Notes: generated by a model from the letters alone, not told the origin. Shown: positions 28,501 through 30,725, numbered from the stretch's first letter. The stretch: 64,000 bases of DNA from Chrysomallon squamiferum (GCA_012295275.1 CM022677.1:14942001-15006000), one strand, 5' to 3'. Numbers and translations: made by a program.

Positions 28501-30725
28501 GTTGGAGTATAAAAATGTTAAAAATTATCTGTACAGCGATCTCTTACTGTTCGTAAAGGGACAAAGTTGGCAGCATTATAATTTATTATATATCACGCAT
28601 ACTAAATAACATACCAACTTATATGTATAAATATTAGTTATGGCTTGTTAATTAACAACAACAACAACAAATACAAAGAAACCAAAAACAAATGTAGTCA
28701 TATCGTCAAAAGTACACTTTAACTCATTACCAGTAATCCATCGCCATTGAACCTGCCTCCGAAGTCCAACCCAGAAATCATCTCCACTGTCTTGATAATA
28801 ATCTCCATAGTAATAATGGTAGTCACGTGATAAAAGTGTTGTCAATGACAACAGCGTCTCATTGGTTAGTTTGGATAGATTGCATTTAGTGTTTGAACTG
28901 ACCCAGTCTGTTTGTTCATTTGAATCTGATGTAATACATATATTGGATTCGCAGTTATATGTCGATGATTGACTTAAGTCATTTCCTGAAATCAAATAAA
29001 AATAAACAAATAAACAACAACACAATCAAAACAGAAAGAACATATGTAGCAGCAGCAACAACAAGAACAACCTAGAGTAATAACAATAATAATAATAAAA
29101 ATAATAACAATAACAATAGCTAGAAGAAGAAAAACAACACACTCACTTCCAAACATAATGATGATGACAAAGACGACGACGACGACAACAACAATAACAG
29201 AAGATAAACAAAAACAAGAGCCAGGAGAATAATGGGAATGAGAATGATAAATTTAATAAAAAATTTATTTATTTTCTTGTTTCCTTATTACTAGAGAATA
29301 ATTTATATTTAAATAGTTTACCTGAACAAACACTGTATGGTGTCTGTTTTTCACAGTTTTGAAATCCAAGTTTTAGCACTTCGTCGTTGTCGTCGTATCT
29401 GATGTAGCCACAGTTGGAGTCGCCGTTGACTTTGAGAATAATCTTCACTGAAGCCGGAAGATCTTTATGACAAAAATGTGCAGAAATTAACAACTTTTAT
29501 GTACATTTTAAGTGTTTATTTGTTTGTTTGTTTACTTATTCATTTGTGCACTTGTCAGTAACATTACTAAAAATATATACATCAACATTAGAATATTTAT
29601 AAACTGAGTATTTAAGGTGAAGGAAACATTTTATATTTAAACACAATTTATTAAAATGAAGTTAACTATATTTTAAAAGATTATTTTTGTTGTTGTTGTT
29701 GTTATTTTATTATTATTATTATTATTATTATTATTATTAAATACGAAATTTAAAAATTTTGTTTCGACTCTTACCAATCTTGTACACAGAAATAAAGTTT
29801 TCTCCACCACAGAATTCTGTGTAGGTTCCTGCACATCTGACACAATCTTCTCTCTTACTTAGTCCACTGTCAGCAATTTTACAAAAACAACGTCTACCCT
29901 GAAAACAAAACAACTTTCTAATTATTTGTTGTTGTTTTTGCTGTTGTCATTATTACTATTATTATTATTATTGTTGTTGTTGTAGCTGTTGTTGTTGTCA
30001 TCGTCGACGTTGCTCTTGTTCTTGTTGTTGTTGTTGTTGTTGTTATTATTATTATTAATAGTAGTACTAGTTGTTGTTGTTGTTATTGTTGTTGTGTTAT
30101 TATCGTTTTTGCTGTTCGGTTAAAAAAAGTAGAAAATGAGAAAGAATTAAAAAATAATGATAAAAATAATATAATATAAATAAATGAATAAACAAAAATA
30201 AATAAAACTAAACAAATTAATAAAACAAAACAAAACAAAATAAATGACAGACAAACAAACAAACAGACAAACTTACTTGTAGACCCACAGTATCAGAAGA
30301 AGCTCTACACTTGATGAAACAAGAGAATGCGCTGTTATCTTGTAACGTGTAATCACTTGTAAGTTCAGTTGTATCTGTTTCTCCTTTGTGTTGAAATAAC
30401 GGTTCATTTGTCTCTGAGAAAGTGACAACAATTTAAAACTGTATTTTGTTACTGAACTGAGATTTATAAACACAAAATGAAACCAGTAAATTATACCTAC
30501 CAGTCCACATCCAAGGTGTATACGTCTCAAAAGCTCCTACCCAATAGTCTTTGTTCTTTTTCATTAGAGAAAAAAGTTTGTTTTAGTCTAAACCAGAATG
30601 ATGAACAACGAGTCTGCCTCCTGCCTCCTCACAGCCAGAATACGCTGCCTCCCACCAAGTTTGTTTTTTATCCAGTGTAAAATATTCTTCTAACATTTCT
30701 TCTTGTTTTCTGTCAGACCACGGAC
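25514..30725 (-). CDS. Copy C (most divergent ectodomain): exons 2-10, in-frame TAA in exon 2, adjacent exon 1 deleted
   Basis: Exons 30725-30501 (TAA at 30583-30585), 30413-30277, 29898-29775 (GRRCFC..DCVRCAG..FCGG..ISVY, WSC), 29462-29322 (NCGYI..QNCEKQTPYSVC), 28985-28731 (..KCNL..FWVGLRR..WRW), 27919-27767, mucin 27491-27243, TM 26549-26474 (AIAGGGVAAVVVVVLVAVVIILWTKR), tail 26264-25514 (open, ends FYFVLENSD*). Exons 3-10 splice in one open frame. Confidence 0.8.
26594..26892. repeat. (CT)n and (GA)n microsatellites in inverted arrangement
   Basis: (CT)n 26594-26688 and (GA)n 26767-26892. Other long GA/CT tracts lie at 8123, 9256, 11668, 12833, 36536, 42525 and 43598. Confidence 0.95.

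Follow-up and report, generated by a model that had tools for sequence, protein, structure and literature searches.

A stop-interrupted gene of Chrysomallon squamiferum, probably from a tandem membrane-protein family with two cross-paired C-type lectin-like domains and a WSC module on one crossover

In a 64,000-nucleotide stretch of Chrysomallon squamiferum DNA (GCA_012295275.1 CM022677.1:14942001-15006000; the whole stretch is the window hereafter), a minus-strand gene running from 33771 to 25514 appears to carry two N-terminal and two C-terminal halves of C-type lectin-like domains (CTLDs), which raises the question of which halves fold together. The window is AT-rich (GC 0.20-0.38 per 2 kb), and the gene was modelled with ten exons, GT-AG borders at 9 of 9 introns and 725 codons with one internal stop. 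Its modules follow the order N1 (exon 2), WSC (exons 3-4), C1 (exon 5), N2 (exon 6) and C2 (exon 7), then a stalk, a transmembrane helix and a Tyr-rich tail. A first-pass annotation had proposed that exon 5 completes the CTLD begun in exon 2, with the WSC domain nested between them; its coordinates stop before exons 6 and 7, which supply the second N-half and C-half, and it missed the in-frame TAA. Cysteine patterns and a structure model make a crossed topology, with N1 paired to C2 and N2 to C1, quite probable, and the gene itself is probably one member, interrupted by a stop, of a tandemly arrayed family of single-pass membrane proteins with two cross-paired CTLDs and WSC on one crossover.

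Within a CTLD, the cysteine numbered C1 lies on helix 1 and the cysteine numbered C4 on strand 5. The most conserved CTLD cysteines pair C1-C4 and C2-C3 (cysteine numbers, not our segment names), and one sheet is made up of strands 0, 1 and 5 (PMC6272133, accessible part). Partners were counted in the 14 genes that have all four segments (the five window copies and genes of Gigantopelta and Haliotis), a slot being scored as concordant when both disulfide partners were present or both absent. The helix-1 cysteine of N1 and the strand-5 cysteine of C2 were each present in 14/14 genes; the strand-5 cysteine of C1 was present in 5/14 and the helix-1 cysteine of N2 in 4/14, those four being among the five. 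Crossed pairing (N1-C2, N2-C1) made 27 of 28 slots concordant, against 9 of 28 for sequential pairing (N1-C1, N2-C2); ordinary CTLDs, scored for comparison, gave 78/88. The inner pair (C1/N2) was lost jointly in two separate clades, one formed by window paralogues W1, W2, W4 and W5 and the other by Haliotis genes, both of which keep the N1 and C2 cysteines. The tree behind these joint losses was built with the two cysteine columns masked, while a tree from N1 and WSC only was largely unresolved; the Fisher p for co-occurrence (0.005) ignores relatedness. Left out of the count were proteins with a missing segment (P0001, P0038, P0040; P0037 was replaced by its full isoform P0042), isoforms of counted genes (P0015, P0039, P0043-45), fragments (P0041, P0046) and single-exon matches (P0003, P0005, P0007, P0014, P0021, P0029, P0030).

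An AlphaFold model of the ectodomain of a homologue with the full architecture (P0004, XP_041371958.1 of Gigantopelta aegis; 329 residues) pointed to the same pairing. The best model had a mean predicted local distance difference test score (pLDDT) of 73.6 and a predicted template-modelling score (pTM) of 0.70, with the other four models at 68.4, 60.3, 47.5 and 44.5. A wide fold search listed 46 CTLD and 4 WSC structures in 50 rows, and a second search listed 44 and 6 in 50 rows. Every CTLD row listed ran from model residues 4-16 to 327-329 with 83-106 residues aligned, the best of them (Z 10.0, root-mean-square deviation (rmsd) 2.6, 87 aligned) covering the outer domain N1+C2 with strands 1 and 5 paired; since these rows span N1 to the C-terminus, the model places the first strand of N1 beside the last strand of C2. 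Among the CTLD rows listed in both searches, none lay over N1+C1 alone or N2+C2 alone. The C1+N2 block (residues 181-280) was the most confident part of the model (pLDDT 79-92 per ten residues), and C1 was modelled as three strands mirroring C2. Foldseek with the whole P0004 model returned no match at E <= 0.001, its CTLD rows having template-modelling (TM) scores by target of about 0.35 or less. In the model of P0001, a homologue without N2 and C2, N1 had pLDDT <50 and CTLD rows reached only Z 2.1-4.2, a confounded control, as P0001 also differs in sequence and carries a signal peptide and an unrelated tail.

Because cysteine co-occurrence and the model pair exon 2 with exon 7, exon 5 is left for exon 6, and the insert would be larger than the first-pass annotation held: a WSC-fold module does occupy the long-loop position claimed for it, and the insert inside the outer CTLD would comprise residues 98-316 (219 residues), that is, WSC together with a circularly permuted CTLD. 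The outer CTLD would be assembled from exons 2 and 7 (residues 23-97 and 317-367) and closed by a predicted Cys54-Cys365 disulfide, and the permuted inner CTLD from exons 5 and 6, with predicted disulfides Cys230-Cys266, Cys202-Cys221 and Cys243-Cys248. Both long loops would then be crossovers between the two domains, so that neither would form the usual Ca2+ site. The motifs EPN, QPD and WND, already reported as missing, were found neither in the ectodomain of the focal gene nor in 7/7 homologues examined. Cysteines of the C2-C3 pair are present in exon 5, lost from exon 7 in 5/5 window copies and kept in the C2 segment of the named homologues.

Several observations weigh against this crossed arrangement. 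The 14 genes are related, and independent joint losses number two only. One gene is discordant, P0042/P0037 (Haliotis cracherodii XP_071080189.1), which lacks the N2 helix-1 cysteine. The model is of a homologue, was built on an alignment of 22 rows, 11 of them single window exons, and was the only one of five above pLDDT 70; its outer domain (N1, C2) is moderately confident (pLDDT 50-78), and it is not independent of the cysteine count because the same cysteine columns stand in its alignment. The permuted inner domain (C1+N2) was matched directly by no fold-search row listed; the CTLD rows all run in N- to C-terminal order, and such a listing would probably miss a permuted domain. The family profile of exon 5 scored 8.2 against CTLDs, within 60 column shuffles (8.3 ± 1.7), and the P0001 model docks C1 weakly on part of N1. 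Finally, isoforms without C2, N1, N2 or N2+C2 are annotated, which is not what an obligate crossed fold would lead one to expect, although these are automated annotations. With regard to the discordant gene, P0042 has a private cysteine just before the WIGL of N2 and an extra cysteine in the WSC helix, and its disulfide is possibly rewired. That it lacks C2 and hence pairs sequentially was ruled out, as C2, including its cysteine, is present in the longest isoform.

The simplest reading of the exon order remains the one first proposed, in which exons 2 and 5 form one CTLD with WSC alone inserted and an ordinary CTLD follows from exons 6 and 7; the focal gene has all four cysteines and therefore cannot by itself decide between pairings. 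Against a generic profile built from 92 ordinary CTLDs, exon 2 scored 43.7 bits and exons 2 and 5 joined in silico 46.5 bits, the join aligning from position 5 to position 115 of the 119-position profile, its cysteines in register. The gain was within that of 300 exon-5 shuffles (44.9 ± 1.8, maximum 52.3), and 10/10 such joins in homologues fell below their own shuffled maximum. The docking in the P0001 model and a match of the N2-C2 stretch to a whole CTLD by sequence also speak for this arrangement, although the latter is expected under either pairing. It would break 19 of the 28 disulfide slots, including those of invariant cysteines left partnerless at both ends, and no listed CTLD row covers either of its domains. 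We consider it unlikely, and the claim that exon 5 closes exon 2's domain probably gives way to the crossed pairing of exon 2 with exon 7.

Crossed pairing might instead operate, wholly or partly, between chains, with N1 completed by the C2 of a neighbour or with isoforms complementing each other in disulfide-linked dimers. Cysteine co-occurrence is blind to the difference between bonds within and between chains, long-loop swaps that join two chains have been described for NKR-P1A, the mannose receptor and snake-venom CTLDs (accessible text of PMC6272133), and the annotated isoforms expose unpaired halves. Those isoforms are automated annotations, however, and one chain suffices for the outer pairing in the model, which makes an interchain arrangement very improbable.

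Profile comparisons bear on the nature of the inner segments. In profile-profile alignment with generic CTLDs, N1, N2 and C2 matched with probabilities of 97.7%, 97.4% and 60%, and the C2 profile scored 23.6 against a shuffled maximum of 14.0; the exon-5 profile, with shuffles against CTLDs reaching 13.6, also failed to exceed shuffles against the family profile of exon 7 (8.5, shuffles up to 11.2). What argues for a CTLD-like C-half in exon 5 is its motif spacing (NCGYI...QNC...SVC), its three modelled strands, partial CTLD alignments and the cysteine pattern. That exons 2 and 7 form the outer CTLD while exons 5 and 6 are a diverged spacer or another fold is the least probable alternative: these exon-5 scores, the loss of the inner cysteine pair in 9/14 genes and the lack of a listed row for the inner domain fit it, but N2 matches CTLD N-halves, C1 has three modelled strands like C2 and lies within alignments to CTLD C-halves, and its strand-5 cysteine co-varies with the helix-1 cysteine of N2.

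The module carried on the crossover has a WSC fold in the P0004 model, which matched yeast Wsc1 (7PZ2; TM by target 0.67, rmsd 2.7, probability 1.00) and the WSC of human Kremen1 (5FWS); in the wide fold search Wsc1 gave Z 9.4 and rmsd 2.8 with 92 residues aligned over model residues 74-168, and WSC was among the top rows for the P0001 model too. The WSC hallmark is eight cysteines in four disulfides, among them C27-C86 of Wsc1 (PMC9024836, accessible part). Here 6 of 8 are conserved, the strand-1/loop-5 pair that corresponds to C27-C86 being missing, so the fold assigned to exons 3-4 stands while the completeness claimed for their cysteine pattern does not. An extra Cys162, private to the focal gene, lies in a WSC loop near the lost sixth WSC cysteine, without a strand-1 partner. 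The CGG motif reads FCGG in exon 4 and CGD, CGN or CGS in several homologues. Sequence profiles were less sensitive to the module: exon 4 alone matched the end of the Pfam WSC profile (PF01822) at 13.3 bits (E 0.097), whole homologues reached 15.7-23.1 bits in 4/9 scanned, both against a gathering score of 27.8, and 3/11 matches carried a precomputed PF01822 annotation. Single WSC domains have no obvious glycan pocket and a fungal lectin with three of them binds beta-1,3-glucan (both from the accessible text of PMC9024836), while the WSC of Kremen1 helps to bind the protein DKK1 (PMC5014086, likewise in part). On these grounds glycan binding, which the first-pass annotation inferred when it had a second glycan-binding domain replace the Ca2+/sugar loop, is possible for the module here but not its default role. 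Wsc1 and Kremen1 share with this module the fold and the CGG motif and, like it, sit in a single-pass protein whose stalk is Ser/Thr-rich or a linker; they differ in having eight conserved cysteines rather than six, and in having WSC in series rather than nested in another domain. The insertion point is not exactly at the intron, as the alignment with the CTLD profile still takes in the start of exon 3 (EDGTPL in homologues), and relative to WxW the introns that follow exons 2 and 6 show a one-codon offset.

The features of the gene and its paralogues are collected in Table 1. Exon 2 (WWEAAYSGCEEAGGRL...YWVG...PWMW) is the first half of a CTLD, as first described: it matched Pfam Lectin_C (PF00059) over profile positions 3-57 of 107 (E 4e-4), scoring 21.5 bits, as a half domain below the 22.6 cut-off. 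Exons 3 and 5 matched neither the Lectin_C nor the WSC profile. Also as first described, exons 3 and 4 form a 1-to-1 module (phases 1, 0, 1), and all ectodomain modules are phase 1-1 when these two are counted as one unit. At the position of the codon-70 stop, the four paralogous exons 2 have the sense codons AAA, TAC, AAA and TAT; the focal gene is probably dead or a null allele, and the value of the observation lies in the family.

Table 1. Exons of the focal gene and paralogous copies, in window positions
Feature	Coordinates	Strand	Remark
Exon 1: signal-peptide-like N-terminus, aa 1-22, ends phase 1	33705..33771	-	signal peptide by eye
Truncated duplicate of exon 2 (first 19 codons), intact acceptor, reads into stop	32879..32934	-	
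Exon 2, N1: CTLD N-half (strand 1, helices 1 and 2, WVG strand, WxW), Cys54, phase 1-1	30501..30725	-	
In-frame TAA, codon 70; sole internal stop of the 725-codon model	30583..30585	-	
Exon 3: first part of WSC-fold module (Cys129, Cys133, GLQ), phase 1-0	30277..30413	-	
Exon 4: second part of WSC-fold module (CFC, RCAG, FCGG, SVY), phase 0-1	29775..29898	-	
Exon 5, C1: CTLD-like C-half (Cys202, Cys221, Cys230), predicted partner exon 6, phase 1-1	29322..29462	-	
Exon 6, N2: second CTLD N-half (Cys243, Cys248, helix-1 Cys266, FWVGL, WRW), phase 1-1	28731..28985	-	
Exon 7, C2: second CTLD C-half (strand-5 Cys365), phase 1-1	27767..27919	-	predicted to close exon 2's domain
Exon 8: Thr/Ser-rich stalk	27243..27491	-	
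Exon 9: single transmembrane helix (hydrophobic run, then KR)	26474..26549	-	by eye
Exon 10: 250-residue acidic cytoplasmic tail; 12 Tyr incl. YYNV, YNRL, YSHL, YDHL	25514..26264	-	
Paralogue W1: exons 1-7, stop in exon 6	1274..4093	-	
Paralogue W2: exons 1-7, stalk, transmembrane exon, tail; late stop in tail alignment	14383..20150	-	
Paralogue W4: exons 2-7, transmembrane exon, disrupted tail; exon 1 not found	51448..56016	-	
Paralogue W5: exons 2-7, inverted; exon 1 not found	57370..59637	+	

With an intact paralogous exon 2 as query, 28 matches were obtained among 1.84 billion representatives, three of them uncharacterised proteins of Gigantopelta aegis, and two further searches added uncharacterised proteins from three Haliotis species. 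In the tree, the window copies were nearest to Gigantopelta among the named matches. The searches were word-based and miss distant relatives, so that the range given covers gastropods only. A word-based search for longer proteins with exon 2 alone left 0 of 5 candidates, a metagenome scan with exon 2 gave 106 pattern matches of which none was confirmed, and two ESM Atlas searches gave no feature match at >=0.9. The top ESM Atlas structure row, below the threshold of the tool, was a Mollusca cluster with 60 members, uncharacterised proteins of 502 aa aligned over WSC+C1, which may represent a wider family. Annotated isoforms and models drop half-domains in frame (C2, N2, N2+C2 or N1 in P0015, P0037, P0038, P0039, P0043 and P0044), as the 1-1 phases of the exons would permit; this may reflect splicing or annotation noise.

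Tyr motifs were present in all 8 tails, those of the focal gene and of 7/7 homologues examined, and the family members are likely gastropod cell-surface receptors. Intact members would have a three-lobed head, with the outer CTLD on the stalk and the inner CTLD and WSC beyond it, and the head may bind a protein or polymeric ligand across its lobes without Ca2+. Signalling would proceed through phosphorylated YxxL/I/V motifs, and the proteins may be variable recognition receptors, a role that we favour slightly and that the turnover of the array suits. The family likely arose when a CTLD encoded by two exons, with a phase-1 intron between them, was duplicated; a 1-1 WSC module was then likely gained near that intron, and the crossed pairing likely became fixed. 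It is doubtful, though conceivable, that these genes form an obligate Russian-doll family in which half-domains are re-assorted, by skipping of exons and by their exchange among tandem copies, as a combinatorial recognition system in molluscs. Such re-assortment would be allowed because every ectodomain module is phase 1-1; if it occurs, re-assorted half-domains would create new composite binding surfaces, or incomplete isoforms would complement each other.

Exchange of CTLD parts has precedents. The long-loop-swapped CTLDs of the mouse NKR-P1A dimer, the mannose receptor and snake venoms share the CTLD fold and the use of the long loop as a swap hinge, and can lack the Ca2+ residues and bind non-sugar ligands; their loop leaves and returns, and two chains are involved (PMC6272133, accessible part). 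In the present family, by contrast, two repeats of one chain are predicted to trade an entire C-half, with WSC on one crossover, and both CTLD repeats lie in one reading frame. Collagen IV NC1 likewise has two C-type-lectin-like subdomains in one chain with segment swapping (PMC3779223, as far as its text was accessible), but is a distant outlier of the superfamily, a matrix protein and free of an inserted domain; its fold was absent among the 50 rows listed in each of three fold searches. Bivalve proteins with CTLD and WSC domains (Saco et al. 2023, PMC10140915) are also uncharacterised mollusc proteins of proposed immune relevance; in the accessible text of that study WSC is named as an additional domain, with neither nesting nor crossing described. 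They are likened to our family by domain content, and figure or supplement content of that study may bear on novelty. The Biomphalaria clusters of polymorphic genes such as PTC2 (PMC11426442, PMC13712769, PMC7494358) are variable gastropod single-pass genes proposed to encode recognition receptors; the term WSC does not occur in the PTC2 papers listed, and the likeness is one of analogy only. In open-access full text, judged mostly from listings, we found no WSC nested in a CTLD and no receptor with cross-paired tandem CTLDs.

CTLDs are normally treated as contiguous units in series. If the crossed pairing is correct, a tandem of this kind, naturally fixed, with its inner domain permuted and a foreign domain carried on the crossover, would add a new topology to one of the largest animal domain families, and one invisible to Pfam-style annotation, which calls such proteins uncharacterised or "Lectin_C + WSC". 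It would also provide a structural handle on fast-evolving mollusc receptors with Tyr-rich tails.

Exons 2-7 occur five times in the window, on three occasions together with exon 1, and there are five transmembrane exons. W2 splices from exon 1 to exon 5 without a stop, and its stalk contains three copies of a repeat of ~28 residues. The copies are mosaic. Exon 2 of the focal gene is 93-94% identical to the other four copies and its exons 3-7 only 53-71%, which suggests recent replacement of exon 2; exons 2-5 of W2 are 89-98% identical to those of W1, W4 and W5, and its exons 6-7 (16597-17129) 53-69%. From this mosaicism we infer exon-wise conversion or recombination together with birth-and-death turnover in the array. 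W4 and W5 are divergently oriented, with 1.35 kb between their near ends at 56016 and 57370, and beyond W5 is a 200-base N gap (60283-60482), which means that assembly of the array may be incomplete. The family has also left orphan pieces: an exon 7 interrupted by a stop, together with stalk and tail (7512-9031, minus strand), an inverted transmembrane exon plus tail (10161-11494, plus strand) and a lone transmembrane exon (36417-36507, minus strand).
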